Shown here piece after piece: positions 1,276-45,947 of a stretch of DNA of 64,000 nt. Made by a program: the position numbers and the translations under genes. The notes below the pieces were generated by a model that had not been told where the DNA came from, did not search any database, and saw only the letters and a list, made by a program, of their open reading frames with translations. Source of the stretch: an uncultured Hyphomicrobiales bacterium. GTDB lineage: Bacteria; Bacteroidota; Ignavibacteria; Kapaibacteriales; UBA2268. The DNA is taken from NCBI GenBank assembly GCA_964465945.1, contig CAYXMM010000002.1, positions 66,691 to 130,690 on the forward strand, read 5' to 3'. Position 1 is the first letter of the stretch. Each line of letters begins with the position of its first letter.

Positions 1276-1512
1276 TGACTCCATATAATGTATTTTTTTA
1301 AATTTGTAAATTATATATATATAATAACACATAAGTTGCAAAAATATACCGCAAAAAAAAATAAATATTTTTAACAATATTTTAAAAAATTTTCTAAGTT
1401 AATAAATATAAGTAAATTATAATGATAAAAATTTTTAAATTATTTTTTAAAATTTTAGAAAGATGAATATTCTTTCATTTATAATTAGAAATATTTATCT
1501 ATAAATGATTAA

Positions 1513-1542
1513 AAAACTACGTAGTAGTTTCATGTCAATAGC
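1513..1542. repeat. 30-bp REP-like element AAAAACTACGTAGTAGTTTcATgTCAATAG; second copy abuts the RAYT gene at 40096..40125
   Basis: Near-identical 30-mer (core palindrome ACTACGTAGT) seen at both loci by direct reading. Confidence 0.6.
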
Positions 1543-1559
1543 AAAAAAACTTTAATCCA

Positions 1560-3554: not shown

Positions 3555-3640
3555 CCCGTCATTCTGAGCGTAGCGAAGAATCTAATCAAAAAAATTCCCC
3601 TCTATCAGAGGGGTGTCGGCTTGCCGACGGGGTGTTGTAT
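3555..3640. repeat. GC-rich REP-like element / probable terminator hairpins (CCCCTCTatcAGAGGGG; GTCGGCttGCCGAC)
   Basis: Two perfect GC hairpins directly after the stop. Contains GTCATTCTGAGCGTAGCGAAGAATC, related to the element at 1616..1640. Confidence 0.5.
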
Positions 3641-9461: not shown

Positions 9462-9538
9462 TATTTATTTGTAGTTTTGTAACAATTTTATTATTTTTGT
9501 GTTTATATAGTATTAAAAATAATAAAATAAAAAATAAA

Positions 9539-19846: not shown

Positions 19847-22800
19847 TTGCGTATAAGCAGAAAGATATATATAACAATAACAATAATTTTTCTCTTGAGT
19901 TTAAGCAGCAATTCAGTGAGGGGAAGTTTGCTGTATAACGCAGGTCCGTTATATAGCATAGCACCTTTATACGCTTTCTCAAACTTAACTTCTACACAAA
20001 TAAACTACTTTCCTTACTTTTGGTTTCCTTTCATTGCTATGCCTCAATCTTACAGAACAGAAAGAGAACTTTTTAAACCCGATACAAGTTATAAATCAGC
20101 ATTATTTGAGCGATATGGTCGAAGATTTCATCCTGGCAAATATGATTATGGGGAGCCGAACTTGCCGGGTTATGAATTTAAAAGTGAGTATGATGATGAA
20201 ACTGGTGGTATGAAAGTTTATGAGACTTTTAATGGTCAAAAAGTTTTTTATGAGCGAGAACTTACATTAAATGAGTATTTGAATGAGGTTAAACAAAGGT
20301 ATCAGGAAAAAAAATGGGATTCTATTTCTTCTGATTATGATTTAAAGAAAGCATTTTCAGGTGGTGATTTAGCTCGACTAATGTCTACTGCGACTGGATT
20401 TTCAATTCCATTACCCCCTAATCCAATTTTTAGTATTTTCGGCTCGCCCAAGATAAGTATAAATGTCAATGGAGAGGTGAATGTGAGGGTGGGTTGGCGT
20501 TGGAATACCCAAAACTTAGGAACGGTATCTCAATTTGGTCAAACTCAATCAACACCTATTTTTTCGCAAGATATTCGAGTGAATGTAAGTGGTAGTATAG
20601 GTGATAAATTGAAATTGTCGACGGATTGGAATACTCGTCGAAGTTTCGATATGGATAATAGGTTTAAAATTGGCTTTGAAGGTGAAGATGATGATATAAT
20701 AAAGCTTGTTGAGGTTGGAAATGTATCAATGCCTTCTTATAATTCGCTTATAGGTGGAGGTCAAACTTTATTCGGGGTTAGAGCTGATTTTCAATTTGGA
20801 CCTTTATTCTTGAAAACTATTCTTTCACAAAGACGAGGTGAAAGAAGATATGTTGATGTTCAAGGTGGAAAGAACTTAAATCCTTTCACTTTACGTGCTT
20901 ATGACTATGTTCGTAATTATTTCTTTTTGAATGATGAATATAAACAAGTTTATAATGAATACTTTAAATATGCTACTCCTGTTTTACCAGTTCAATTTGA
21001 TAGTATAAGTGTAAAGGAAATTGAAGTATGGGAATCAACTACTCAACTTACAAATACTAAAGTTAGAGAGGCAGTAGCACATAATGTCTTGCCTAAATTA
21101 AGACGTGGGGAGAATTATCCGCAATCGTTAATTGATGCACCTATTACAGCGGGGAAAGTTGAAAGAGGTAGATTTCAACTACTTGATTCAACAAAATGGG
21201 AACTTGATTATAACTTAGGAACTCTAAGAATTGAGAATTTGTCACCAGATAGGACTTATGCAGTTTCGTATCGATTACAAGGTCCATCTCAATCATTAGA
21301 CGACGACCAAAGAATTGGGTATTTATCATCAGAAAGAGAGTTCAAAGAAGTGATGGTGCTTCAACTTGTTTATGTTCGTAATTTACAGCCAGGGTTCAAA
21401 GAACTTTGGGGAAGACAAATGAAGAATATTTACAATATTGGAGCTACTAATGTAGATGCGTCTTCAGCAAAAATTAATATTTGGTATTTACGTCCAAGTA
21501 ATGACTCTGTTGATGTGCTGGAAGGTTCAAATCAGAAAATCGTTACAATTTTTGGCGTTGATAGAACAGATAATAGCGGGCAGGTGCAACCTGATGGTAA
21601 ATATGATATGCGAGAGCCGTTTTTTAATGCGCAAAGAGGGGAAATTACTTTCCCAAGTGTTGAACCATTCAGAGCAGGACTTTATGCCTATTTTGATAGT
21701 TTAGGGAAAAGACAAGTTGCTGATAAATATGTTTATGGCGATGTTTATGATACAACTTGGGATGTTGCCAAAATAAATACAGCAAGAGATAGATTTATTA
21801 TTTCGGGTGAAGTTTCTGGTTCTTCTTCTAATAGAATCAGGTTAGGAGCATTTAACTTAGCCCCTGGTTCAGTTAAAATTTCTCTTGATGGTTCGCCTTT
21901 ACGAGAGTATCAAGATTTCGTTGTTGACTATTTTTCAGGGACGGTTCAACTTAGAAACCCAAGAGCAACCTTACCAAATGCAAATCTTAAAATTGAATAT
22001 GAGCAGGCAGATATATTCCAAGTTTCAACAAAAACTTTAGCAGGATTAAGGGCAGATTATAATTTAATTGATTCAAGGCGAGTCAGGTCTGATTTGGGAT
22101 TCACCTTTATGCACTATAATCAAAGCGCTGTAATCGACCAAGTGCAATTAGGGCAGGAACCAGTTGCAAATACTATGATGGGATTTGATGCAAAATTAAA
22201 TTGGGATACTCCTTGGCTTACTAAATTATTAGACTACTTACCTTTTTATGATACTAAAGCAAAATCAAATTTCGATTTTCTCGCTGAATGGGCTATGATG
22301 TTTCCTGAGCCAAATAAAAGAAAATCGGTTATACCAAGTGATGACGGTGAGTCAGTTGTTTATATTGATAATTTTGAAGCAGCTCAAAGAAGAATAACTT
22401 TGGGGTTAAATCCTTCGCTATGGTCACATAGTTCAGCTCCAGTTGATGAAACTATTGCCCCAACAGCAGAAGAACGAAACCTTTATCGTGGTTCAACTTT
22501 TTGGTATCAAAAATTTATCCCATGGATTAGACAGCGAGATGTTTACCCTGATAAACAAGTATTAATTGGACAAAATAACTTAAGCCCGTTGCAATTTTAT
22601 TTAGAGCCATACATAAGAGGTATTTATAATAATAACCCTGAGTTTCTTGACACTTTGAATCCTATGTATGATGAAAGCCAGCCACATTATATTTTAAGAA
22701 ATGGAGCAGATGGGAGATTAAATAAAGATAGAGTTTGGGGTGGTATGATGAGATTATTATCTTCATTCAATACTAACTTTGATAATGAAAATATTCAGTT

Positions 22801-25800
22801 CATTGAAATAATGATGAATGTATATAATCATGAACAGAATACAAAATTATATTTAGATTTAGGACAGATAAGCGAAGATGTTATTCCAAATGGGAAATTA
22901 AATACAGAAGATGGTATAACAGCAAAAAGCCCACTACCAAATGGCTTAATTGATATTGGAGAAGATGTCGGCATTGATGGATTAAGTAATGAAGAGGAAA
23001 AAACAAATACGGATCCAAATAAGTTAATTTTTCCATATCCATTGAGCTTGGAAGATGACCCAGCAAGAGATGATTATTTCTTTGACTTCAAACAAAATGT
23101 AAGCGACCAAGTTGAAAAAGACTTTGTCAAATATAATAATTTTGAAAATAATTCCAAAATGTCTGAAATGGGTGCTTTTCCAGATACTGAAATTTTAAAT
23201 GACAATAATGGGCAACAAATAGCCCTTGACAATAGCTATTTTAGATATGAAATTGATATTTCAAATTTGAACGAAAGCACTAATCCCCAAATAGTCGGAG
23301 GTAACCCATCTAAGGGTTGGTATTTATTTAGAATTCCAATTAGAAAACCAACTTCAAAAGTTGGTAATCCACAATTTACAAATATCCAATATGTAAGGTT
23401 AGCAGCACAGGGTGGAGTAGCACAAGTATGGATTGCAGATTGGGCTTTAGTTGGTTCTCAATGGCAGAGAATTAACACATTTCAATCAGTTCCTCCATCT
23501 GATAGTGCTATGCAAGTTTCTTTTGTTAATTCATTTGAAAATGGTTCATCTCCTGACTATTACACAATGCCTCCAGGTGTTCGCTCTCCAAGACAAATTA
23601 ATAGCCCTAATCCTCAACAGAATATTAGATTAAACGAGCAATCTCTAAGAGTTTGTGTGAGTAATTTGAAATTTGGTGAAGAAAGAATGGCAACAAGAAT
23701 TTTCCAAAATATGGATATATTCTATTATAAAAAATTGAAATTCTTTGTCCATGGCGATGGCTCTATGCCAAATGTAATTCAGCAAGGAACAATTCCTGAT
23801 GCTTATGTTTATATGCGGTTCGGTATTGATTCAAATAACTACTACGAATATAAACAACCATTAACATCGAATTGGGACGATATTGAAATTGATTTAAGGA
23901 AGCTTACTTCTATTAAACAAATCCGTGATAATAGTAAATTGAATGAAAGACAAGAGTTTCCAGCAGGAAATGGTAATCCGAATGCCACTTTTGCAATAAA
24001 AGGAACGCCAATCTTAACGCGTATAAGTTTCTTTGGATTTGGTGTTGCTAATCCAAGCGAACGTTTTCCTAATGACTTAACTACTTGTATCTGGGTTGAT
24101 GAGTTAAGATTAACTGATGCAGAAAATAGCAATGATTGGGCTGCAAATGTTTCATCTAACTTACAATTAGCTGATTTGGGAACTGTAACAGCATCAATGA
24201 ATACCAAGCAAGCGAATTTCCATAAACTCGAAGAAAGATTTGGGGATAGAAAAAATGATGGCAATTTCACCATTTCTATGCAAGGAAATTTAGAAAAACT
24301 TGCTCCAAAAGAGTTTAAACAAATGAAAATTCCAATTGCTTATACTCATGCTGAGTTATTATCTACTCCAAAATTTATAGCGAACACTGACCTTGCACTT
24401 GAAGAAGCAATGGCTATAACAAGGGATAATATTTTAGACAATGGAGGAAGTAAAGCAGAAGCAGATAGAGAAGCTAATAAACTTAAAGATAAATCAGAAT
24501 TACTTAAAGTTCAAGACCAATGGTCGCTTACTGGAATAAAATTAGGTATCCCAGTTAATCACTGGTCAATAAATGAAACTCTAAATAAGTTGAACTTTAA
24601 TTACACATATTCACAAGAATATACAAGAACCCCTGTCTATGAAAATAGGTTTAATTGGAATTGGACATTAGATGCTAATTATACAAATTCACTCCCTGAT
24701 ATTCTTGCTTTTAGCCCAACAAAATTCTTAAAAGATGTGCCTGTAATTGGGGTTTATGGAGATTGGAAATTGAACTTATTACCTTCGAATATTGGCTTTG
24801 GATTAAATATGACTAGGGGGAGACAGACAGAACAATCAAGATTCTTAACCTTTGCTTCACCTGTTGTAAGAAGTTTCTTTGCAGATAGGAAAGCTAATTT
24901 TACTTGGAAACTTAGCCAAGGTGGATTATTATCGCCAAGTATTGATTATTCGTTCAATACAAGAAGTTCATTAATTGATTTAGAGCATGATGAGTTTGGA
25001 AATCAAAGAACTGGGAGTCAAATTTCAAATGCGATGTTTTCAAATGGCTTCGATTTTGGTAGAAATACTACTCATAATCAAATGTTCACAATAAACTTTA
25101 AACCAATTTTACCAGTTGGATTTTTAAATAAATACTTGGATATGAATGGTTCTTATAATGTGAATTACTCATGGAATGACCCATTAATGCCAGACCCTGC
25201 TGTGCGTGATAGAGCAAAAAATGCTACTTATAATGGCCAGTTTCGTTATAATATAAATGTAAGTTTAAGAAGCTTTGGTGACGAAATTTTTGGAATTACT
25301 CCAAGTAAGATGTTTGGTAAAAGAAAAGATGATAAGACAGGCGAAGAAGTAACTGATTGGGGAAGTCAAATATTATTAGCTTTCAAATCCATTCTTTTAG
25401 ATTATGAGAAAATTAATATTACTTTAAGCCAAACAAATAATTCTACTAATCCAGGTGTTTTTGGTGGAACTGGTATGAGTAATTTCTGGGGTAGAGGGAT
25501 TACTGGAAGAGAGAGTTTGAATAATTTCGGACCAAGTTTCGCTTATCAAATGGGATTAACGTCTAATCCTCATGGTGGGTTTAATATATCTCCTTCAAGT
25601 AGTTTTCCATTTTTCTCTTTTGATTCTTACCCTGGTTTGAGACCACCAAATGGGCGATATCAAGATAATTACAGACAAAGCACAGATTTGAATATTGCTA
25701 CCAATAGACCTCTTTGGGAAGGAGCAACACTTGATTTAACATGGAAAACTTCACAAGCGTTTAATAGAAACCAAACTGTAATAACGGATGTTAATGGTGT

Positions 25801-26734
25801 TCCGACTTTTACAAATGTAATTGCTATGCAAACTATTGACAAATCATACATTTCTTTACCAACTATTTTCGGTTTAAATTTATTTGGTAACACAGTTGAA
25901 GATGTTGTGAAAGGTTTTGAGTTACGAAGAGATGCGATAGTCCAGAGGACAGATATTGATACACTTGAGAAAAATAAATTGTTAAACAGAGCATTAGCTC
26001 AATCGTTCTATGAAGAATTAGAAGCTTTCTCATTCTCTGGTGTTGGTCAATTAGGTCATTTCTTACCTTCAATCAACTGGGGAATAAGGTGGACTGGAAT
26101 TGAAAAATGGACAATTTGGGGAGGATATTTGAAGAAGGTTCAAGTAGATCATAACTATACGTCAAACTATTCCGAAGCGGTTCAAATCACTGATAATGGT
26201 CGAGTAATCCAAAATCAACAAGTTACAACGGGCTTCTCGCCATTAATAGGGGTGAATGTCTCATTTGATGAAGCAAAAACCAAAGGAACTTTGACTGGTT
26301 CTATTAGGTGGAATAGAACGCAAGGATATAACTTAAATGCTGCAGCAAAATCAGTAGTAACCTCACAAACAACAAATGAAATTGCGGTGCAAGCAAACTA
26401 TACAATGAATAGCTTTTCAATTCCATTTTTGGGCTTTCAACTCAAAAATGAGCTTGAGTTCAGCTTCTTGGGTTCATATAAATTCAATGGACGAGGAACA
26501 TTCGACGTATTCGACCCAACAAGTTTTTCTGGCGGACAAGAACAAGGTCGAGTATTAGATGGAAGCACTGTTGTATCAGTCGAGCCAAGAGTAAGGTATT
26601 CTCTATCAGAAAGATTAACCGCATCATTTTTCGTAAGATATGACGGTACATTCAACGTAGGAGCTTCAAACCCAGGTTTCCATACTACCCAAGTAGGTCT
26701 TGATTTCCGACTTTCAATCGCTGGTGGTAGATAG
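19847..26734 (+). CDS. sprA: giant outer-membrane protein, SprA/Sov-like T9SS translocon
   Basis: 2295-aa single ORF with a signal peptide and beta-rich composition, ending in a beta-barrel-like ...GLDFRLSIAGGR. Size and genome context (many T9SS cargo proteins) fit SprA. No sequence search was possible. Confidence 0.6.
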   Translation: MRISRKIYITITIIFLLSLSSNSVRGSLLYNAGPLYSIAPLYAFSNLTSTQINYFPYFWFPFIAMPQSYRTERELFKPDTSYKSALFERYGRRFHPGKYDYGEPNLPGYEFKSEYDDETGGMKVYETFNGQKVFYERELTLNEYLNEVKQRYQEKKWDSISSDYDLKKAFSGGDLARLMSTATGFSIPLPPNPIFSIFGSPKISINVNGEVNVRVGWRWNTQNLGTVSQFGQTQSTPIFSQDIRVNVSGSIGDKLKLSTDWNTRRSFDMDNRFKIGFEGEDDDIIKLVEVGNVSMPSYNSLIGGGQTLFGVRADFQFGPLFLKTILSQRRGERRYVDVQGGKNLNPFTLRAYDYVRNYFFLNDEYKQVYNEYFKYATPVLPVQFDSISVKEIEVWESTTQLTNTKVREAVAHNVLPKLRRGENYPQSLIDAPITAGKVERGRFQLLDSTKWELDYNLGTLRIENLSPDRTYAVSYRLQGPSQSLDDDQRIGYLSSEREFKEVMVLQLVYVRNLQPGFKELWGRQMKNIYNIGATNVDASSAKINIWYLRPSNDSVDVLEGSNQKIVTIFGVDRTDNSGQVQPDGKYDMREPFFNAQRGEITFPSVEPFRAGLYAYFDSLGKRQVADKYVYGDVYDTTWDVAKINTARDRFIISGEVSGSSSNRIRLGAFNLAPGSVKISLDGSPLREYQDFVVDYFSGTVQLRNPRATLPNANLKIEYEQADIFQVSTKTLAGLRADYNLIDSRRVRSDLGFTFMHYNQSAVIDQVQLGQEPVANTMMGFDAKLNWDTPWLTKLLDYLPFYDTKAKSNFDFLAEWAMMFPEPNKRKSVIPSDDGESVVYIDNFEAAQRRITLGLNPSLWSHSSAPVDETIAPTAEERNLYRGSTFWYQKFIPWIRQRDVYPDKQVLIGQNNLSPLQFYLEPYIRGIYNNNPEFLDTLNPMYDESQPHYILRNGADGRLNKDRVWGGMMRLLSSFNTNFDNENIQFIEIMMNVYNHEQNTKLYLDLGQISEDVIPNGKLNTEDGITAKSPLPNGLIDIGEDVGIDGLSNEEEKTNTDPNKLIFPYPLSLEDDPARDDYFFDFKQNVSDQVEKDFVKYNNFENNSKMSEMGAFPDTEILNDNNGQQIALDNSYFRYEIDISNLNESTNPQIVGGNPSKGWYLFRIPIRKPTSKVGNPQFTNIQYVRLAAQGGVAQVWIADWALVGSQWQRINTFQSVPPSDSAMQVSFVNSFENGSSPDYYTMPPGVRSPRQINSPNPQQNIRLNEQSLRVCVSNLKFGEERMATRIFQNMDIFYYKKLKFFVHGDGSMPNVIQQGTIPDAYVYMRFGIDSNNYYEYKQPLTSNWDDIEIDLRKLTSIKQIRDNSKLNERQEFPAGNGNPNATFAIKGTPILTRISFFGFGVANPSERFPNDLTTCIWVDELRLTDAENSNDWAANVSSNLQLADLGTVTASMNTKQANFHKLEERFGDRKNDGNFTISMQGNLEKLAPKEFKQMKIPIAYTHAELLSTPKFIANTDLALEEAMAITRDNILDNGGSKAEADREANKLKDKSELLKVQDQWSLTGIKLGIPVNHWSINETLNKLNFNYTYSQEYTRTPVYENRFNWNWTLDANYTNSLPDILAFSPTKFLKDVPVIGVYGDWKLNLLPSNIGFGLNMTRGRQTEQSRFLTFASPVVRSFFADRKANFTWKLSQGGLLSPSIDYSFNTRSSLIDLEHDEFGNQRTGSQISNAMFSNGFDFGRNTTHNQMFTINFKPILPVGFLNKYLDMNGSYNVNYSWNDPLMPDPAVRDRAKNATYNGQFRYNINVSLRSFGDEIFGITPSKMFGKRKDDKTGEEVTDWGSQILLAFKSILLDYEKINITLSQTNNSTNPGVFGGTGMSNFWGRGITGRESLNNFGPSFAYQMGLTSNPHGGFNISPSSSFPFFSFDSYPGLRPPNGRYQDNYRQSTDLNIATNRPLWEGATLDLTWKTSQAFNRNQTVITDVNGVPTFTNVIAMQTIDKSYISLPTIFGLNLFGNTVEDVVKGFELRRDAIVQRTDIDTLEKNKLLNRALAQSFYEELEAFSFSGVGQLGHFLPSINWGIRWTGIEKWTIWGGYLKKVQVDHNYTSNYSEAVQITDNGRVIQNQQVTTGFSPLIGVNVSFDEAKTKGTLTGSIRWNRTQGYNLNAAAKSVVTSQTTNEIAVQANYTMNSFSIPFLGFQLKNELEFSFLGSYKFNGRGTFDVFDPTSFSGGQEQGRVLDGSTVVSVEPRVRYSLSERLTASFFVRYDGTFNVGASNPGFHTTQVGLDFRLSIAGGR

Positions 26735-37682: not shown

Positions 37683-39458
37683 TTATAGCTGAATTGTACT
37701 GTCGTTTAATGATTCTAAGAAATCAACAGCGTTTTTAAGGGCTTTGCCTGCTAATATTCCGTCGATTACTCTGTGGTCATAAGTTATTGACATATACATT
37801 ATATGTCTTATTACGATTGCGTCTTCTCCATTTAATTCTCTTACAACTGCTTGTTTTTTGATTGCTCCAACTCCAAAGATTACGCATTGTGGTTGGTTTA
37901 TAACAGGTGTACCGAATAATGTTCCGAATGTTCCAACATTTGTTAGTGTGATTGTTCCACCCATAATGTTATCTGGGTCAAGTTTTTTGTTTCTTGCTCT
38001 TGTTGCTAAGTCAGTGATTGAACGTTGTAAGCCAGTTAAGCTTAGTCCATCTGCTGATTTAACAACTGGAACAATTAAGTTTCCGTCTGGTAGCGCTGTT
38101 GCAATTCCAATGTTTGTGTTTCTGTGTTTGAGGATATTTGTTCCGTCAACGCTAACGTTAATCATTGGGTTTTGTCTTACTGCTTCTGCAACTGCTTGTG
38201 CGAAGAAAGAAGTGTAAGTTAGTTTGATGCCTTCTTTTGCTTCAAATGAATTTTTATATTTTTCTCTAAATTTCACTAAGTTTGTAACATCAACTTCTGC
38301 AACAGATGTAACGTGAGCTGAAGTTCTTTTTGACATAACCATGTGCTCAGAGATTAATTTTCTCATTCTATCCATTGGAATGACGTCGTAATTACCACCA
38401 ACATAAGAAGGTGCTGCCGCTTGTTGAACTGGTGCAGGAGCAGGAGCTGGGGCAGATACAACAGGAGTAGGAGCTTGAACTGGCGTTGGAGCAGGAGTAA
38501 CTACTTGAGGAGCAGGAGCTTGTGCTGGCTGACTTCCTCTTGAATTGATGTAATTCATTAAATCGTCTTTTGTTACTCTACCTTCAATGCCTGTACCATT
38601 AATTGACATTAATTCTTCTAAGGATATTTTTTTGTCGGATGCAATTTCTCTTACTAAAGGTGAGAAGAATTTGCCATCTTTTGTTCTTGGAATTTCATAA
38701 GTTGTTCCAGAAACTTGCGCTGTTGGTGCTGAGTAAGTTTGTGCTACTGGTGCTTGTGCGACTACAGGAGTAGGTGCAGGTGCAGAAACAACAGGCGCAG
38801 GTGTTGCAATAGAGCCACCAGTAGAAATTCTTGCTATTGGAGTTCCAACTTCTACTGTTTGTTCTTCTTGAACTAAGATTTCTGAAATTGTTCCTGAAAC
38901 TGGAGAAGGCACTTCAGTATCCACTTTATCAGTTGAAATTTCGAGAATCATTTCATCTCTTTCTACTACATCGCCAACTTGTTTTAACCATTTAATAATT
39001 GTTCCTTCTTGTAAAGATTCACCCATTTTAGGCATAACAACATCAATTGTGTTGCCACCACTAACTGGAACAGGCGCTGAAGCAGGTGTCGGAGCTACTA
39101 CTGGTGCAGGCGCAGGTGTTGGAGCTACTACTGGTGCAGGCGCAGGTGTTGGTTCAACTACTGGTGCAGGAGTAGCAACTGGTGTAGCAACTGGTGTTGG
39201 AGCAGCTGGCGAAGCACTTGCATCAGTTTCAATAATTGCAATTGGAGTTCCAACTTCAACAGTTGTATCCGCAGGCACTAAAATTTTATATAAGATACCG
39301 GATTGAGGTGAAGGCACTTCAGTATCAACTTTATCTGTCGAGATTTCAAGGATCATTTCGTCTCTTTCAATTTTATCGCCCTCTTTCTTCATCCAATTTA
39401 TTATCGTCCCTTCTTGGAGTGATTCTCCCATTTTGGGCATTACGACTTCAACTTGCAT
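37683..39458 (-). CDS. 2-oxo-acid dehydrogenase E2 (dihydrolipoamide acyltransferase) with two lipoyl domains
   Basis: Two near-identical lipoyl domains (VVMPKMGESLQEGTI...EISTDKVDTEVPSP), Ala/Pro linkers, a subunit-binding domain and a C-terminal catalytic domain (DHRVIDG). AGGAG Shine-Dalgarno site upstream. Confidence 0.9.
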   Translation of the reverse strand: MQVEVVMPKMGESLQEGTIINWMKKEGDKIERDEMILEISTDKVDTEVPSPQSGILYKILVPADTTVEVGTPIAIIETDASASPAAPTPVATPVATPAPVVEPTPAPAPVVAPTPAPAPVVAPTPASAPVPVSGGNTIDVVMPKMGESLQEGTIIKWLKQVGDVVERDEMILEISTDKVDTEVPSPVSGTISEILVQEEQTVEVGTPIARISTGGSIATPAPVVSAPAPTPVVAQAPVAQTYSAPTAQVSGTTYEIPRTKDGKFFSPLVREIASDKKISLEELMSINGTGIEGRVTKDDLMNYINSRGSQPAQAPAPQVVTPAPTPVQAPTPVVSAPAPAPAPVQQAAAPSYVGGNYDVIPMDRMRKLISEHMVMSKRTSAHVTSVAEVDVTNLVKFREKYKNSFEAKEGIKLTYTSFFAQAVAEAVRQNPMINVSVDGTNILKHRNTNIGIATALPDGNLIVPVVKSADGLSLTGLQRSITDLATRARNKKLDPDNIMGGTITLTNVGTFGTLFGTPVINQPQCVIFGVGAIKKQAVVRELNGEDAIVIRHIMYMSITYDHRVIDGILAGKALKNAVDFLESLNDSTIQL

Positions 39459-39939
39459 AGATATCTCCTAATAAATTCTAATAATTTTAATTTTCACAAA
39501 ATAATTTTCTAAATTAACCAAAAATTGCAACATTTACAATAGGTTTGTTATGAACTTTGCTGAGTGTTTATTTTTTTGTATTATTTGCACAACTTTTATA
39601 GATATTGATTTTCAAAATTATTATTTGTTTATACTTTGATATATTCAATTGTTTTTATTTTATTTTTAAAATATGAGTTTTTGAGTATTTTTTTTATATT
39701 TTTTGCAGATTCTGGGCGTTTTTGGTTTTTTTTAAAATCGTGTAAATAATTAAAATAAAAATAGTTATAAGATATGTGTAAAAAAAATGTCGTTTTCGTC
39801 TGCAAGAAAATGTACTCGATAAAATTAAAAATATATTGTATAAAATGGAAAATATATTCAACAAAATAGAAAAAATTTGGGCAAAAAAAATGGTTTTTAA
39901 TTTTGTGATTTGAAACCTTTTGAAGGGTAATACATTAAT

Positions 39940-40142
39940 GGCATGTCGCTACTACGGAGTTTTTTTATTTCACTAAAGCCGATGTGATTTGGGTTTTGAT
40001 GAATGGGCTGAAGCCCTATCCTATTGATTTATCCAAATTTTATTGTTGCTTTCCACCTACCCCTACTCAACGATTTTGATTTATTTAAATTAGAAAAACT
40101 ACGTAGTAGTTTAATATCAATAGTATTAGAAATATAAATGAG
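39940..40142. repeat. REP-like imperfect repeats flanking the 3' side of the RAYT gene
   Basis: Contains CTACTACGGAG, GGGCTGAAGCCCTATCCTATTGATTT, TTCCACCTACCCCT...ATTTTGATTT and AAAAACTACGTAGTAGTTTAATATCAATAG. Each has a partner on the other flank or elsewhere in the window. Confidence 0.55.
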
Positions 40143-40619
40143 TTACTGCTCCGTAGGAGTAGCACTTTCTTCTAAAATATATTTATCATCATATTCTATT
40201 TTATATGCCTCTAGTAGACTTTTATACTCTTTTTTAAAACTTACTTTTTTATGATGTTCTTTTTGATTTTCAATATAGTTAATTGTTTTCTTTAACTGAC
40301 TTTGGCTTACTGAAAATGCTGAATATCCTGTCTGCCAATAAAATCTTCCTTTAACAAATTTATTGTCTGATATCCATTTTGATGTTGATGATTTAATATC
40401 TCTTATTAAATCTGATATTAAACAATCAGGATATATACTTAATAAAATATGTATATGGTCAGTATATCCATTAATTACAAATAATTTTTGATTTTTCTGT
40501 TTTATAACTCCCGTTATATATTTGTATAACTGGTCTTCCCAATGTTCTAATATTAAGTTCTCTCGTCCTTTAACTGCAAAAACAATATGCAGATATATTT
40601 GTGTGTATGTATTTGGCAT
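40143..40619 (-). mobile_element. IS200-like / REP-associated tyrosine transposase (Y1 HuH transposase)
   Basis: 158-aa ORF with the HuH motif (DHIHILLS) and the catalytic-Tyr motif INYIENQ. Its ends are embedded in 17-bp inverted repeats: TGCTCCGTAGGAGTAGC at 40136..40152 and its reverse complement at 40651..40667. Confidence 0.8.
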
Positions 40620-40950
40620 AATATTATTGTATCTGATTTTTATATTCTACTCCTACGGAGCAGGTTGTATTGTTGTATCGTTTGCTATTGATATTAAACT
40701 GCTACGCAGCTTTAAAATATTTTTGCCTTTGTGTTCCACCTGCCCATTAATCCCGTCGGGATAATATGTTTATAGTATTATTTTAGTTAGTATGGATACG
40801 ACTCCGACGGAGTCTCACCTTGTTTTTAGTTTTTTTTTGCTATAAACGTTTGAATCCGAGGGATTCGGGTTTGGCTAAAGCCATTATTTATTTGGTGTTA
40901 TGTGATAGGGCTGAAGCCCATTCCTATTGATTTTATTGATATTTTAAATT
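40620..40950. repeat. REP-like imperfect repeats flanking the 5' side of the RAYT gene
   Basis: CTCCTACGGAGCAG, CTGCTACGCAGC, TTCCACCTGCCCAT, CGACTCCGACGGAGTC, GGGCTGAAGCCCATTCCTATTGATTT. Several partner with motifs in 39940..40142. Confidence 0.55.
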
Positions 40951-40952
40951 AT

Positions 40953-41711
40953 TTAATTATTATCATAACTAGCTGTGTCTATACCAGAATGCTTGTAAAT
41001 AACTTGATTTGAATTTTGATTTTGATTTGTTTTATTTATTTCTGTTTCAAATTTCTGTAAATCTTCTTGTTCTATATCATCTTTTAAAATATAATTCTTG
41101 AATATATTCCATAATACTCTTAATATAAAACTAAAGATATAATAAGTAAAGTATAATAAAACCATTAGCAATAAAAAATCATCATATTCTAACTTTACAA
41201 ATAAAAATATTACTACAATAAGACCAAGTAATAAAATTGTAAATTTAATTGGGACTTCTAGTTTGTCTTCATAAATCTTTTCAATTCTTTTTATTTGATT
41301 TTTAATTGTTATTCTGAAATCATTGTTATTACTTTCAACCTTCCTAATGATATCTTCGTTTTTATTAGTTTTTGAATAAGATATTTCATAATTAAAAATT
41401 CTAAATAATTTTCCTGAAGAATTTAATTTTAATTTGTTTCTAAAAATAACATCTAAAAATAAAATGACTGCCCAAATCACATCTACTATATTCCAAAGTT
41501 CCCTTCCAAATGATATTTTAAAAAAAGGGTTAATTAGTATAGCTGATCCAATCCAAAGTATTAATAAGGGTTTCTGTTCTTTATCTAAGTAAGCAAAATA
41601 GATAAACCCAATCATTCCTGCTAATCTAACAAACATATAATATCCATAAGGCATATTTATTAAACAAATCAGGAATATAACAGCTAATATTATTTTTACT
41701 ATTCTCATCAT
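40953..41711 (-). CDS. hypothetical polytopic membrane protein (third gene of the cassette downstream of the MmeI-like gene)
   Basis: Three N-terminal TM helices, a charged middle segment, two more TM helices and an N/Q-rich tail. No recognisable motif. Confidence 0.5.
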   Translation of the reverse strand: MMRIVKIILAVIFLICLINMPYGYYMFVRLAGMIGFIYFAYLDKEQKPLLILWIGSAILINPFFKISFGRELWNIVDVIWAVILFLDVIFRNKLKLNSSGKLFRIFNYEISYSKTNKNEDIIRKVESNNNDFRITIKNQIKRIEKIYEDKLEVPIKFTILLLGLIVVIFLFVKLEYDDFLLLMVLLYFTYYIFSFILRVLWNIFKNYILKDDIEQEDLQKFETEINKTNQNQNSNQVIYKHSGIDTASYDNN

Positions 41712-41725
41712 AATTAAAAATTATT

Positions 41726-42493
41726 TTATTTATTTTTCACTTTTTGATGTTCTGAAATAAAGTCATGAATATATGTGTTGTTAAGATGAAGATCATTTCT
41801 CATCATGTCAATAAGACTGTCAAAATTTTCAGATATCGTAACAAGTTTTTTTTCTATTTCGGCAGGCATATCTTGAACTTCTTTTGAAAATTCCATTTTC
41901 TGAATTTCGTGGATTTCAAATAGAGATTTCATGAGTTTCTGAAATTCATCCCTAATTGAATTAGGAAATAAGCTGCTGTTGTCCAAGGAATTTTTCTTTA
42001 TTCTATTTAACAGTGAGGATCCAAAGTTCAAGTAGACAGAACGATAGTATTCATATGAGTCTTCGATAATAGCATTTCCTTCATGGTAAATTTGTTCAAC
42101 ATTAAACAGATCTGACTTAGACTTTATTAAGTCTTTGAGTGAGCTTGTTTTGTCCTTAAAGATTTCATTTTGTACTGATTGAAGAGAAGAAATTACTATC
42201 GGTTGAAATGAAGACTTGATTTGATTAATCTCAACTTGGTTTTTGTCAGTTTCAGTCTCAACTCTTTTTAATTCCGCTCTTTCTTTTTTTCTAGTTAGAA
42301 GACGTGTAATCCAAAATGTAAGAAGTGTAACAAGTAGCGGAAATACTAACGATATTAATATGGGATTTGTTAGAAAACTATAGTCATCTTTTTTAGATTG
42401 AATAGCCTCTATTGTTATCTTTCCTTCTTTATTGTTATAGGAAATAACTTCGTCTAAATTGACTTTATATATTGTCGTATCTTTTTGGTTCAT
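41726..42493 (-). CDS. hypothetical single-pass membrane protein with long helical/coiled-coil C-terminal region
   Basis: One TM segment (PILISLVFPLLVTLLTFWITRLL), then a K/E-rich helical region. Sits 14 bp upstream of the next gene. Confidence 0.5.
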   Translation of the reverse strand: MNQKDTTIYKVNLDEVISYNNKEGKITIEAIQSKKDDYSFLTNPILISLVFPLLVTLLTFWITRLLTRKKERAELKRVETETDKNQVEINQIKSSFQPIVISSLQSVQNEIFKDKTSSLKDLIKSKSDLFNVEQIYHEGNAIIEDSYEYYRSVYLNFGSSLLNRIKKNSLDNSSLFPNSIRDEFQKLMKSLFEIHEIQKMEFSKEVQDMPAEIEKKLVTISENFDSLIDMMRNDLHLNNTYIHDFISEHQKVKNK

Positions 42494-42561
42494 TTTTAAT
42501 TAGGCCTCAATTTGTTGTTAAAATAATATTTTTTACTTACAAAATAAATACAATTCCCCAC

Positions 42562-43215
42562 CTACTCCTCCTCACAAATTTTGATTTCTGCTCTTTGTAA
42601 ATAACTATCTAAATTGTTTTGTCTATCAAATATTAAAGCAATTGTGTATTGCAATTTTGTTATAGTTAAAACATTGAATTTAGGTAATGGTATTAGGCAA
42701 CGAAAACCATCAACATATACTAAAATAAATGATTCTATTGTATTATTATTATATGATAAATGATAATGAAAACTGCTTGCTTTTGGATCAGGAAATTTAT
42801 TAGCCCACGTCTCTACAAAATTATCATTTAATTCATCATTAATGTTATGCGAATATAACTTTAATTTTGGATCATTTTTATAAATAGATTTGTCGAATTC
42901 ATTATCTTCACTTGTTTCCCAATCAAAAATAGAATTAGTCATAGCTACAAATTCAAGAATTTCATTTTTACTCATATCACTTAATTTCTTCGGTGGTGGA
43001 TCAAAGTGATTTGCTATTGCTTTAGAGCTAAATAAGGCACCAGATAGAAAATATAATAATACGCTAATTGGTTCAAAAATTCCTAAGTCGTTAAATATTA
43101 TCCATAAAATTGTAATTATAATTGCTACAACTGCCTTTATAAAAGCAGTTACAAATATTTTTGAAATATTATTTCTTAAAAACTTAGCAAATTTAATAAC
43201 TTTCGTTTCCATCAC
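42562..43215 (-). CDS. hypothetical membrane-anchored protein, translationally coupled to the MmeI-like gene
   Basis: Two N-terminal TM helices plus a ~150-aa soluble domain. The start ATG overlaps the stop of the R-M gene (ATGA at 43212..43215). Confidence 0.5.
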   Translation of the reverse strand: MMETKVIKFAKFLRNNISKIFVTAFIKAVVAIIITILWIIFNDLGIFEPISVLLYFLSGALFSSKAIANHFDPPPKKLSDMSKNEILEFVAMTNSIFDWETSEDNEFDKSIYKNDPKLKLYSHNINDELNDNFVETWANKFPDPKASSFHYHLSYNNNTIESFILVYVDGFRCLIPLPKFNVLTITKLQYTIALIFDRQNNLDSYLQRAEIKICEEE

Positions 43216-45947
43216 CCCCTCCTCTTCTTTTTACCGGTTGTGAATAAATCGGCGGTGTATTTTTCGTATAGTTGGAATAGGTATTCTAATCGCTCGGCTT
43301 CGGTGGTGAAAGGGGCGGAGCGATAGGATTTGTCAACTGCTTTGTCTAATTCGTTGTGGGCTTTTACTAAGTCTGGGGGCATTGTTAATGGGTCGTATAA
43401 TACTGCCAATGAGGACTCTGGGTATTTTGCTCTGATGTCTAATACTTGTTGGGCTTTTTCTTCGATTGCTTGTATTTGTTTTTCTGTAGGGTTTTCTGGC
43501 CAAGGATAGTTATTATAAACTATATCTTTTGAATATCTATAATCACTTTTCAATCTTCCACAGACTGTTTTTACCCAATTCATGTGCATAATTGAAGATA
43601 ATACACCAAAATGGAAATGAGTCGCATTTGGAAGTGAGAACATAGTATCACTAACAATCACGTCTTTTTTAAAAAATCCAATAGGAATATATTTCCTATT
43701 TTCAGAAGTTGTTCTTGGGATTATTAGATAATCATTCTCTGGTTGAGTTATTTGTCTAAATAATGTATGAGAAGTATAATCCCTGGTAGACTTAGCTTTA
43801 CTTTCACTTCTGAATTTTCTAACTAATTCAATTCTTTTTAAAATAAAGGGCATTTTTTTTAATTCATCAGGTTTAATGTCTTTCAACCATATGCACCATC
43901 TTTTTTTGTTATTTAAAAATTCTCTTGCACTTATAAATGGTTTTATTACATTTGAAGATAATGGATCATTTATAACAAAATCTTTTTTTTCTTCATCATC
44001 TAACAAGTAATGGCCACCATCAGTTGGTTTATTTCCATATTTCATTGATGGAACATTACATACTGGAAATGTTCTATTTTGGATTAATATATTAGGAGCA
44101 TCAATCAAATAAGGGTTTATATTTTTAACTTTAATTACGTATCCATCACCTTTAATGTCTGGGTAATCATAGATTTTTTTATTTTTAATATCATAATTTG
44201 CAAAACCAATTATTACACAATAGACAGCGGCTTTATCTTTAGCTTCATTAGACCATTTGAAAGTACGATGAGCGAAGTGAATATATATATTATATTTTTC
44301 TAATAAAGTATACCATAAAATTCCTACTTGTTCACCTTGGACTAATGAATTTGTTGATACTAAAGCTACTTTTATATTAGTGCCTTGAATGTATTTTAAT
44401 GATAAATAAAACCAAGCAGAAACAAAATCAAGTACCCCATTTGCTTTTATATCATTTAGAACATTTGTCATATCTAATTTTTGTTCTTTTGTTTGTAAAT
44501 GATGTCCAATAAATGGTGGATTACCAATAATATAAGATAGTTCGTTTTTGTTGATTACATCGTTCCAATCAAGTTTTAAGGCGTTTGCATTATGGATATT
44601 AGCGGATTTGACAAGTGGGATACGAGTTAAGTATTGTCCGAACTCATTACTGACTTTTATATTCATTTGGTGGTCGATAAGCCACATAGCAACTTCGGCG
44701 ATACGAGCAGGGAATTCTTCGAGTTCGATACCATACATCATATCTACATTGAGTTTAATCATTTCGCTAATTTCGAGAATTTGCTGACCATCGTCGTATA
44801 GTTTTTTTAGGATTTCGATTTCAAGTAGGCGTAGTTCTCTATAAGTGATAATTAGGAAATTGCCACAACCACAAGCTGGGTCAAGGAATTTGAGTTTGCT
44901 TAGTTTATCGTGGAATTGAGTAAGTTTATTTTTGTTATGTTTTACATTATTAAATTCTTCCCATAATTCATCAAGGAAAAGTGGCTTAATAAGTTTTAAG
45001 ATGTTTTTTTCTGAAGTGTAATGAGCACCGAGATTTCTTCTTTCTGTTGGGTCCATAACAGATTGGAACATAGAGCCGAAAATCGCAGGTGAGATTTTAC
45101 TCCAATCGAGATAGCAACATTCGAGAAGGGTTTGTCGCATCTTTGAATCAAAACTTGCAATAGGAAGAACTTCTTCGAATAACTTTCCATTTATATAAGG
45201 AAAAGCGTTGAGTTGTTCGTCGATGTTTTTAAATCTTTTTTCTCTTGGGGTATTAAGAACTTGGAAGAGTTCTTGTAAGCGAGAGGCAAGGTCAGAGCCA
45301 TCTGGTTGGGTTCTTTCTTCTATGAAAAATTGGAAAGATTGCCTATCGAAAATACCAGTATCTTCTGCGAATAAACAGAATAAAATTCTAACAAGATAAA
45401 CTTCGAGTTCGTGGCCAGAATAGCCAATTTCTTCTAATCTATCATGAAATTTACCGAGTAATTCAGCTGCTTTGATATTAACAGGGTCTTGTTCTTTGAA
45501 TACTTTTTGTTCGTAGCCAGCGATGAAATCAAAGTAATGTAGATTATCGAGGAGTTCAGAAATTAAAAATATGTGTTTGGTGTTTTCTTCCAAATGATAA
45601 AGATGGAATTGATTAAAGTCTGAAACTAAAATATATCTTGGGAGTTCATATTGCGGAATATTATATAAATAATCTTTTGCTTGTTGGAATGCTTTTTCAA
45701 GGTCTTTGCCTCTGCTTTTCATTTCAACAATAATAGTTGCCTTCCAGAAAAGGTCGATATATCCGTCGTTTTCGTTAAGTTTTTTTACTTTATGTTCGAA
45801 GGTGGCGATTCTTTTTCTTTCAACACCAAAGATTTTGAAGAAGTCTTCAAGAAATGGTTTTGCTTCGGCATCTTCGCTTGTTTCGTCTTTCCATTTGTCA
45901 ATAAAAGCGACTGCTCTTTGTTTTATTTCGTTTTTGCTAAGGGGCAT
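43212..45947 (-). CDS. MmeI-family Type IIL restriction-modification enzyme (fused PD-ExK endonuclease + gamma-class N6-adenine methyltransferase + TRD)
   Basis: N-terminus MPLSKNEIKQRAVAFIDKW...AKPFLEDFFKIFGV...DLFWKATIIVEMKSRGKDL parallels the MmeI N-terminal nuclease domain (D...E-x-K), as recalled from memory. SAM motif I FLDPACGCGNFL, motif IV IIGNPPFIG and the conserved YRELRLLEIE / HYTSEKNILKLIKPLFLDEL blocks are present. 911 aa. Confidence 0.8.
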   Translation of the reverse strand: MPLSKNEIKQRAVAFIDKWKDETSEDAEAKPFLEDFFKIFGVERKRIATFEHKVKKLNENDGYIDLFWKATIIVEMKSRGKDLEKAFQQAKDYLYNIPQYELPRYILVSDFNQFHLYHLEENTKHIFLISELLDNLHYFDFIAGYEQKVFKEQDPVNIKAAELLGKFHDRLEEIGYSGHELEVYLVRILFCLFAEDTGIFDRQSFQFFIEERTQPDGSDLASRLQELFQVLNTPREKRFKNIDEQLNAFPYINGKLFEEVLPIASFDSKMRQTLLECCYLDWSKISPAIFGSMFQSVMDPTERRNLGAHYTSEKNILKLIKPLFLDELWEEFNNVKHNKNKLTQFHDKLSKLKFLDPACGCGNFLIITYRELRLLEIEILKKLYDDGQQILEISEMIKLNVDMMYGIELEEFPARIAEVAMWLIDHQMNIKVSNEFGQYLTRIPLVKSANIHNANALKLDWNDVINKNELSYIIGNPPFIGHHLQTKEQKLDMTNVLNDIKANGVLDFVSAWFYLSLKYIQGTNIKVALVSTNSLVQGEQVGILWYTLLEKYNIYIHFAHRTFKWSNEAKDKAAVYCVIIGFANYDIKNKKIYDYPDIKGDGYVIKVKNINPYLIDAPNILIQNRTFPVCNVPSMKYGNKPTDGGHYLLDDEEKKDFVINDPLSSNVIKPFISAREFLNNKKRWCIWLKDIKPDELKKMPFILKRIELVRKFRSESKAKSTRDYTSHTLFRQITQPENDYLIIPRTTSENRKYIPIGFFKKDVIVSDTMFSLPNATHFHFGVLSSIMHMNWVKTVCGRLKSDYRYSKDIVYNNYPWPENPTEKQIQAIEEKAQQVLDIRAKYPESSLAVLYDPLTMPPDLVKAHNELDKAVDKSYRSAPFTTEAERLEYLFQLYEKYTADLFTTGKKKRRG

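Follow-up and report, generated by a model that had tools for sequence, protein, structure and literature searches.

Is a lone Y1 HUH transposase gene among short palindromic repeats an ordinary insertion sequence (IS), or the partner of the repeats around it? This question is raised by a locus in a 64,000-nucleotide stretch of contig CAYXMM010000002.1, from an uncultured bacterium placed in the Kapaibacteriales (the whole stretch is called the window throughout), where a 158-aa open reading frame (ORF) lies between inverted hairpins. Among domesticated transposases of bacteria, the textbook example of one that keeps up a population of short repeats is the association of REP-associated tyrosine transposases (RAYTs) with repetitive extragenic palindromes (REPs). 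A preliminary description of the locus, made from its letters alone, had read it in these terms. We find that gene and hairpins make up a compact cassette of ~620 bp (40094-40713), which is probably a single-copy transposase of TnpAY1 subclass 1.2 enclosed by inverted doublets of its presumed cognate repeat unit.

Results

A Y1 transposase on the IS200 side of its family

The transposase ORF is the sole notable reading frame between a gene for a 2-oxoacid dehydrogenase E2-like protein and a DUF6804 gene (Table 1). Its product matched Pfam Y1_Tnp (PF01797) at 8e-26, as its single Pfam domain, and scored 70.5 bits against the NCBIfam IS200 equivalog (cut-off 55), with no other NCBIfam model matched. 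The HuH and YIENQ motifs named in the preliminary description are both present, as DHIH (in DHIHIL) and YIENQKEHH, together with a WQ motif (in YWQ). Residues H55, H57, Y115, Q119, H122 and H123 were invariant across 27 relatives, and the protein and its relatives share a conserved C-terminal tail, FKxEY..L...I.Y...Y. A phmmer search of PDB sequences found the TnpA proteins of ISDra2 (2.4e-7) and IS608 (1.7e-5), with H55-I-H57 and Y115 aligned to the HVH and Tyr of ISDra2; E. coli RayT (4ER8) was not matched at E<=1. Similarly, the best structural matches of an AlphaFold model (pLDDT 86.5) were ISDra2 and IS608 TnpA, and RayT 4ER8 ranked only 25th, with 15% identity. PADLOC did not match the transposase to any defence system.

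The gene occurs once in the window, as the preliminary description had stated, and every 20-kb locus examined around a relative also held one copy of the family gene. One metagenome-assembled genome (MAG; CANMBF01) holds two divergent paralogues (L030 and L039). Family members were present in 2 of 72,556 plasmid records, both of them ~600-kb replicons and one with housekeeping genes. Comparison with an 80%-identical relative (L082) gave a dN/dS of ~0.2 (0.12/0.60), from which we infer that purifying selection keeps the gene, at one copy.

A hairpin unit frames the gene across phyla

We compared 80 loci that encode relatives of the protein (49-63% identity). They come from species-representative genomes, many of them MAGs, and cover Bacteroidota, Ignavibacteriota, Verrucomicrobiota and others. 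Read on the coding strand, the 100 bp before the gene held perfect hairpins with a GTA loop at a density of 4.6 per kb, and the 100 bp after it held their mirror images, with a TAC loop, at 3.9 per kb. For GTA-loop hairpins more than 2 kb away the density was ~0.02 per kb, the chance level. Their orientation was 36:2 upstream and 31:4 downstream. Framing by hairpin units is a conserved, orientation-specific trait of this family across phyla.

What is the repeated unit? Alignment of 116 sites gave the consensus A-GCNCC-GTA-GGNGC-G-A-N-ATAT-Y-NN-TAG-AA. This describes a unit of ~30 nt. Its hairpin has a GTA loop on a 5-bp stem that covaries and is closed by CC/GG, with an A.G mismatch at its foot, and a tail of 13 nt (G-A-N-ATAT-Y-NN-TAG) follows. 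As the sites were chosen without reference to the tail or the leading A, the conservation of both is independent evidence for the unit. A non-circular test of the stem used only CCGTAGG as its anchor and left the three outer pairs free. Across 103 distinct sites, these formed Watson-Crick pairs in 96%, 96% and 90% of cases, values that 0 of 500 shuffles reached. The third pair from the loop was the most variable, with all four pair types occurring, and a sixth pair was not conserved at these anchored sites.

A covariance model built from the unit alignment (R1), which is trained on GTA loops and misses variants, gave 268 matches in 1.18 Mb and placed units in 66 of the 80 loci. Units no more than 150 bp from the gene were divided between the strands 69(+):3(-) upstream and 56(-):10(+) downstream, so that the tails point at the gene. 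The usual arrangement is two units per side with a period of ~50 nt. Some 9-14 nt separate the proximal upstream hairpin from the ATG, and the proximal downstream unit either overlaps the stop codon with its tail or is translated as the C-terminus of the protein; homologues accordingly have C-terminal tails of the APTEL/TPTEQ type, or the same hairpin directly past the stop codon. A closed Bernardetia replicon gave weak R1 matches only, next to its gene, which indicates that the sequence or the loop of the unit varies beyond the GTA-trained model.

The two paralogues that share a MAG are each framed by a stem of their own, ATCCC for L030 and GCTCC for L039. Over the family, proteins that share a stem were 61.9% identical, compared to 58.4% otherwise, a difference of 3.5 points that was significant by permutation. 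The test is confounded by relatedness, which explains this difference, and a reading as co-evolution of protein and stem was rejected.

The window carries four framing units, an extra unit and a solo copy

R1 found six units in the window: four that form the arms around the gene, one at 40749-40781 and a solo copy at 1515-1547. The inner arms are the 17-bp inverted repeat of the preliminary description, CTGCTCCGTAGGAGTAG (40146-40162 on the plus strand, 40647-40663 on the minus strand), which is perfect at 17/17 bases and was matched in 0 of 100 shuffles even with 3 mismatches allowed. Both ends of the ORF had been placed inside these arms. This is true of the 3' end, where the inner downstream hairpin encodes the last six codons (ATPTEQ), while a distance of 27 nt separates the ATG from the other arm. 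An outer inverted repeat of 29 nt (40095-40123 and 40685-40713; 90% complementary), absent from the preliminary description, encloses the inner one. All four arms are one hairpin type, CTNC-GTA-GNAG, with stems CTCC/GGAG, CTAC/GTAG and CTGC/GCAG, and the unit periods are 49 and 50 nt. The inner upstream unit has the position and orientation seen in homologous loci.

The solo unit, 38.6 kb from the gene, was the best R1 match in the window. It is 93% identical over 30 nt to the outer-arm unit, with a similarity that spans the A-run to TAG. Dispersed elements had been described near 1.5 kb and near 3.6 kb; the former is a true copy of the unit, and the latter belongs to a different repeat family. 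The cluster at 3556-3629 and the other hairpins at 1567-1636 differ in sequence from the unit, gave no model match at E<=10 and were rejected as members of the family.

The direct repeat reported on both sides of the gene is also real. Its two copies are 80% identical over 44 nt, and GGGCTGAAGCCC occurs in the window only at 40005 and 40908 (0.01 expected). Three further hairpins with non-GTA loops (40800..40883), read from the sequence, gave no significant R1 match; variant loops comparable to theirs are present in other loci, and they are probably decayed or variant units. The shuffles and the model E-values rule out a chance origin of the repeats in the window. Rfam had no family match in 39400-41100, even at E<=1, and matched only tRNA in the whole window, so that the hairpins are not a catalogued RNA motif.

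Table 1. Position of the transposase gene, the hairpin units and the neighbouring features in the window, with the matches of covariance model R1.
Feature	Position	Strand	Description	R1 match
Y1 HUH transposase-like gene	40143..40619	minus	ORF, 158 aa, ATG start	
Inner upstream unit	40630..40663	minus	hairpin CTGCTCC-GTA-GGAGTAG (40647-40663), tail toward ATG	40630-40662, 20.1 bits, E 0.001
Outer upstream unit	40679..40713	minus	hairpin AAAGCTGC-GTA-GCAGTTT, tail AATATCAATAG; one outer end of the cassette	40679-40711, 22.8 bits
Inner downstream unit	40146..40179	plus	hairpin CTGCTCC-GTA-GGAGTAG (40146-40162), overlaps 3' end of gene	40147-40179, 17.4 bits
Outer downstream unit	40094..40129	plus	AAAAACTAC-GTA-GTAGTTT, tail AATATCAATAG to 40123; other cassette end; DNA fold z-score -3.4	40097-40129, 28.9 bits, E 8e-7
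Extra unit	40749..40781	plus	ATCCC-GTC-GGGAT, GTC loop, tail AATATGTTTATAG; points away from gene; within strain-variable segment	40749-40781, 25.4 bits, E 1.3e-5
Solo unit	1512..1547	plus	AAAAACTACGTAGTAGTTTCATGTCAATAG; DNA fold z-score -3.8	1515-1547, 30.6 bits, E 2e-7
Direct repeat copy A	39987..40030		GGGC-TGAA-GCCC hairpin 40005-40016, then CTATTGATTT	
Direct repeat copy B	40890..40933		hairpin 40908-40919; inside strain-variable segment	
Hairpin	40800-40814		GACTCC-GAC-GGAGTC	none significant
Hairpin	40852-40866		GAATCC-GAG-GGATTC	none significant
Hairpin	40872-40883		TGGC-TAAA-GCCA	none significant
Copy of 3' end of neighbouring 214/217-aa gene	40050..40082		33 bp, encodes ..EIKIVE-stop	
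Strain-variable segment	40714..42557		1.84 kb; hairpin cluster, DUF6804 gene and 255-aa gene	
DUF6804 gene	40953-41711		in strain-variable segment	
255-aa gene	41726-42493		in strain-variable segment	
2-oxoacid dehydrogenase E2-like gene	37683..39458		neighbour of transposase gene	
MmeI-family restriction-modification gene	43212-45947	minus		

The cassette is conserved from outer hairpin to outer hairpin

The 80%-identical relative lies between a MatE gene and flagellar genes. Its locus showed 81% nucleotide identity to the window over exactly 40095-40713 (619 bp), from outer hairpin to outer hairpin, with unrelated flanks. Since the whole block is conserved in an unrelated context, the cassette also behaves like a compact IS.

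Close strains differ at the edge of this block. Two contigs with 98.5-98.7% flank identity (L086 and L087) lack the 1.84-kb segment that adjoins the cassette in the window, and their homology to the window stops at 40713, so that the left junction of the indel is the foot of the outer upstream hairpin. The segment is bounded by partial repeats that contain AGGTGG (40731-40745 and 42557-42575). In the same two contigs the cassette lies between 33-bp direct repeats that correspond to the 3' end of the 214-aa gene beside it. The distal copy is retained in the window, and in L086 and L087 a second one directly adjoins the opposite end of the cassette. Copies of the 3' end of this 214/217-aa gene read ..EIKIVE-stop or ..EIKICEEE-stop (window 40050-40082 and 42557-42590; L086 6352-6384). 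A flanking duplication of 47-51 bp at L065 and L067 is likewise the 3' end of a host gene, and that of L082 is ~70 bp.

At least ten loci have the last codons of the gene and the downstream units repeated upstream of the upstream units (RE'-LE-gene-RE; L006, L050, L062, L013, L081, L036, L015, L047, L058 and L078), as expected of the remnant of a tandem copy or of a circle junction. Contigs often end less than 1 kb from the gene (L001, L086 and about a quarter of L002-L081), and for the two closest strains this distance is 250-350 bp beyond the gene, which is consistent with assemblies breaking at hairpin arrays.

Units occur away from the gene, as pairs and gene-less cassettes

Beyond 1.5 kb from the gene, R1 had 5 matches in 926 kb of the 80 loci (5.4 per Mb), compared to ~1,200 per Mb near the gene, a density ~230-fold above that elsewhere. 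Six exact, species-specific 13-mers of the same core recur more than 1 kb from the gene, where ~0.02 would be expected. Most units are within 1 kb of the gene and few lie beyond, so that the REP proliferation suggested by the preliminary description is modest: units are dispersed, at low copy number.

Public metagenome contigs were scanned for the commonest core, AGCTCCGTAGGAGCG, which gave at least 120 stretches. Among the matches listed, 9 had the family gene within 600 bp, and 57 of the 66 well-flanked matches, with at least 700 bp on both sides, had no gene. Could these be random matches to a 15-mer in a huge collection? In single-match gene-less stretches among those listed, the bases past the searched core read (A/G)-C-A-T at 70-79%. 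These conserved tails formed no part of the search; they refute random matching and identify the gene-less matches as true units.

The gene-less units are arranged. They form quadruplets (+,+,-,-) that look like the cassette minus its gene (L130, L118 and L137), convergent pairs (L114 and L117) and tandem arrays (L128). Inverted pairs like those of REPINs had been proposed as something to look for, and among the matches listed convergent pairs outnumbered divergent ones by ~52:12. Neighbours on the same strand keep a gap of 34-40 nt (period ~50 nt) whether the gene is present or absent (L088-L207; window 40104/40154 and 40655/40704), and this narrow spacing suggests that the doublet, rather than the single hairpin, is the functional end module. 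Head-to-tail arrays with a period of 25-26 nt (L018 and L022), together with the similarity of the solo copy ending at TAG, suggest that the unit has its boundary there.

The convergent pairs at L117 11223-11279 and L114 2768-2840 could alternatively form a single long hairpin, with GTAG at its 5' and CTAC at its 3' foot, which is the 'double-foot' REP form described for RAYT subclass 2.4. The units were rejected as REPs of a class 2 RAYT, as no Y---NP gene was found in the matches listed from these stretches, and no other transposase family was found there either.

Other features of the window

The window has a G+C content of 30%, and the RuvB of the organism shares 73-76% identity with proteins named Ignavibacteria, Kapabacteria and Bacteroidota. 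Beside the cassette, 42562-45947 has a defence-island-like context with the MmeI-family restriction-modification gene of Table 1, and the 217-aa ORF there has a weak PADLOC match to the candidate family PDC-S50 (3e-9). Of the repeats outside the family, CCGTCATATTGAGCGAAGCGAAATAG (1611-1636) and CCCGTCATTCTGAGCGTAGCGAAGAATC (3556-3583) resemble CGTC-tagged repeats reported in Bacteroidetes, and the small hairpins CTTCC-ATTGAG-GGAAG (1567-1582), CCCCTCTATCAGAGGGG (3597-3613) and GTCGGCTTGCCGAC (3616-3629) are unrelated to the GTA units. Two small ORFs (1755-1967 and 2122-2292) look like the remnant of a toxin-antitoxin pair, and there are two very large ORFs (9497-14161, 1,554 aa; 19847-26734, 2,295 aa).

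Discussion

The data above show a transposase gene of the IS200 type set between inverted hairpin doublets, all with their tails toward the gene. What might such an enzyme do with these hairpins? Our best reading is a hybrid one, in which an IS200-derived and largely immobile cassette would encode an enzyme that acts on hairpin units in single-stranded DNA. By analogy with the TnpA of IS608 and ISDra2 and with TnpA-REP of E. coli, the enzyme may bind the hairpins where DNA is single-stranded, for example at replication forks, and may nick and rejoin DNA beside them through its HUH/Tyr site. Such reactions could occasionally copy or move units and pairs of units, in the manner of REPs and REPINs, and more rarely the whole cassette. 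The most tentative element of this scheme is the likely cleavage point, which we would place at the 3' boundary of the unit at TAG.

Several points weigh against this interpretation. Hairpin binding, the cleavage site and the cleaved strand are all steps that we infer from related enzymes. The single-copy claim spans the window only, and a second identical copy may lie elsewhere in the genome. Copies away from the gene are few, at ~5 per Mb in the 80 loci and one in the 64-kb window. The hairpins have little thermodynamic stability in single-stranded form (-3 to -4 kcal/mol), and it is their conservation, not their energy, that gives them weight. IS608-style pairing of guide and cleavage sequences would show as covariation of the 5' flank with the tail, and none was found; the only strong coupling in that test was the A.G foot, which at times turns into a sixth base pair. 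The same-strand excision scheme of IS608 could not mobilise a gene that lies between inverted ends, and even so the cassette occurs in more than one context. Finally, direct duplications of 33-70 bp flank cassettes in three lineages, and no known Y1 mechanism explains them.

One rival account is an autonomous IS of the IS200 group. Here the 620-bp cassette would be the mobile unit, with the hairpins as subterminal ends, and copies without the gene would be deletion derivatives like miniature inverted-repeat transposable elements. The cassette has the size of IS200 and a single tnpA above the equivalog cut-off, it stands as a block with boundaries at hairpin feet in an unrelated context, its gene-less (+,+,-,-) versions resemble internal deletions, and several loci have a junction-like RE'-LE remnant upstream. 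We nevertheless consider this account unlikely. There was no second copy in 64 kb or in any 20-kb locus, the sole pair within one genome (L030/L039) is highly divergent, and plasmids almost never carry the family, with the two records above as the only cases. In a published survey, the subclass averaged 1.7 copies per genome, with an identity of 36% (Quentin et al. 2018, BMC Genomics 19:475). Moreover, the ends are inverted, compared to same-strand ends in IS608 and ISDra2, and the long flanking duplications are unlike IS200/IS605. This account overlaps with the hybrid reading rather than excluding it. The preliminary description had set a RAYT against a complete IS200/IS605, a contrast that the IS-like behaviour of the 619-bp block makes less sharp.

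The hairpins could also be older than the cassette. If the gene, or an element bearing it, had inserted into an inverted pair of host repeats, as REP-targeting ISs do, the hairpins would be targets rather than products or substrates of the enzyme's mobilising activity, and convergent pairs or quadruplets without the gene might represent empty target sites; the cassette region does hold several repeat types and shows rearrangement between strains. It is hard to see, however, how insertion into existing repeats would fix the geometry to within a few nt in many phyla, both in the spacing from hairpin to ATG and in the overlap with the stop codon. The stem sequence tracks the lineage of the gene, paralogues in the same genome differ in their stems, units are ~230-fold denser beside the gene, and the unit-bearing stretches listed held no other transposase family. 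We regard this origin as very improbable. Least credible of all is a purely cis-regulatory role, with the hairpins as stem-loops of the 5' untranslated region, terminators or an autoregulatory operator, and without a part in DNA mobility. IS200 is regulated through its own 5' stem-loops, the proximal hairpin here lies just upstream of the start codon, and a terminator scan flagged 40146-40162 and 40750-40762. Both of these terminator-like sites, however, belong to the plus strand and the gene to the minus strand, and a terminator reading was rejected. The mirror-image sides would place GUA loops upstream and UAC loops downstream in the mRNA, which favours symmetry at the level of DNA. Most of the unit-bearing loci among the matches listed are gene-less, copies that regulation of the gene leaves unaccounted for, and Rfam had no match.

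If the hybrid reading is right, the unit and the 158-aa protein make the movement of units, pairs and cassettes, and the route of duplication, directly testable. The locus would offer a concrete, sequence-defined candidate substrate, a unit of ~30 nt in a fixed geometry, for an enzyme of the IS200 clade that was reported without repeats or end structures. Automatic annotation labels such genes 'IS200/IS605 family transposase' or 'RayT' interchangeably. We also put forward, as a tentative possibility, that subclass 1.2 is a distinct REP-type partnership with its own mini-REP on the IS200 side of the Y1 tree, that its insertions are accompanied by 33-70-bp duplications of the host sequence that lies upstream, often the 3' end of a gene, and that it is the missing intermediate between IS200 and the domesticated RAYTs. 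If so, Bacteroidota, Ignavibacteriota, Verrucomicrobiota and other phyla would harbour mini-REPs as doublets with a 50-nt period, as REPIN-like inverted pairs and as mini-cassettes that lack the gene, and the duplications would imply a route of insertion other than the 'peel and paste' of IS608. An origin of RAYT/REP systems from IS200-type elements was raised as a question for 'RAYT-like IS200 Group 3' (Bertels et al. 2017).

How does the cassette compare with known systems? TIRYTs, found in 'TIRtrons' (Di Nocera et al. 2013; subclass 2.1 of Quentin et al.), are also Y1 genes flanked by inverted repeats, sometimes with small repeat families. They are ~240-aa proteins with a C-terminal helix-turn-helix-like domain, a Y---NP motif and terminal inverted repeats of the GGGGWSAS type. 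The window protein, in contrast, has 158 aa, a single Pfam domain and no Y---NP, and its arms lack a GGGGWSAS-type motif.

Elements of the IS200/IS605 group (IS200, IS608 and ISDra2) provide the closest matches to the protein in both sequence and structure. They resemble the cassette in size (~0.6-0.7 kb), in having one tnpA with hairpins beside both ends, and in occurring as a block in different contexts. Unlike the cassette, where end hairpins and tails are inverted, they have their ends on the same strand. They also have several near-identical copies per genome, compared to the single-copy gene here, which has no tnpB, and they make no target duplication, in contrast to the 33-70-bp flanking duplications at L086/L087, L065/L067 and L082.

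With RAYT/REP systems the locus shares the REPtron arrangement, a single-copy Y1 HUH gene between inverted copies of its own short palindromic repeats. Dispersed copies of these exist as well, for the most part in inverted pairs, cognate repeats differ between paralogues, and a GTAG tetranucleotide is nearly invariant in the repeat. The cognate REPs of class 2 RAYTs have a 5' GT[AG]G foot and many dispersed copies, often in inverted pairs (REPINs); here GTAG spans loop and stem, convergent pairs can alternatively fold with GTAG...CTAC feet, inverted pairs predominate, and dispersal is real but low, at ~5 per Mb. The RAYT reading of the preliminary description therefore holds for the architecture, which is like that of REPtrons and REPINs, and fails for the protein, which lies outside the class 2 RAYT lineage, and for the repeats, which are not canonical REPs. 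The protein has Y---Q (YIENQ) where RAYTs (TnpA-REP, class 2) have Y---NP; this motif, in YIENQKEHH, the IS200 equivalog score above cut-off and the matches to ISDra2 and IS608 but not RayT separate it from class 2. Unlike canonical REPs, the units have a 5-bp stem and a 3-nt loop, their GTAG spans loop and stem and is no 5' foot, and a conserved 3' tail and same-strand doublets with a 50-nt period set them apart as well. Their number would be tens, compared to hundreds of REPs per genome, the genome-wide unit count being an extrapolation.

The closest fit is TnpAY1 subclass 1.2, a sister of classical IS200 TnpA that is found at low copy number in Bacteroidetes and Cyanobacteria, with the signature Y---Q--HH, DH[IV]H and WQ in ~148 aa and a conserved C-terminal tail of ~30 aa (Quentin et al. 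2018). Judged by its sequence, the window protein matches this type: it has DHIH, WQ and YIENQKEHH in 158 aa with a conserved tail, its gene is single-copy in the 64 kb, the two family copies within one MAG are divergent, and its relatives are in Bacteroidota and allies. Bertels et al. (2017) described an IS200 Group 3 without duplicates, off plasmids and flanked by moderately abundant 16-mers, for which no repeat was defined; this may be the same set as the family of the window. A search of full-text literature gave nothing relevant on the unit sequences or on follow-up work on subclass 1.2. The survey lists the subclass as 'REP: no' and without IS200-type end structures (Quentin et al. 2018), in contrast to the window and to 66 of 80 loci, where the gene lies between hairpin units. 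Since 'no REP' is a reported and non-defining property, this framing revises the description of subclass 1.2, not the membership of the protein. The locus thus resembles the known pairing of RAYT and REP, with an enzyme from a branch that was reported to lack repeats.

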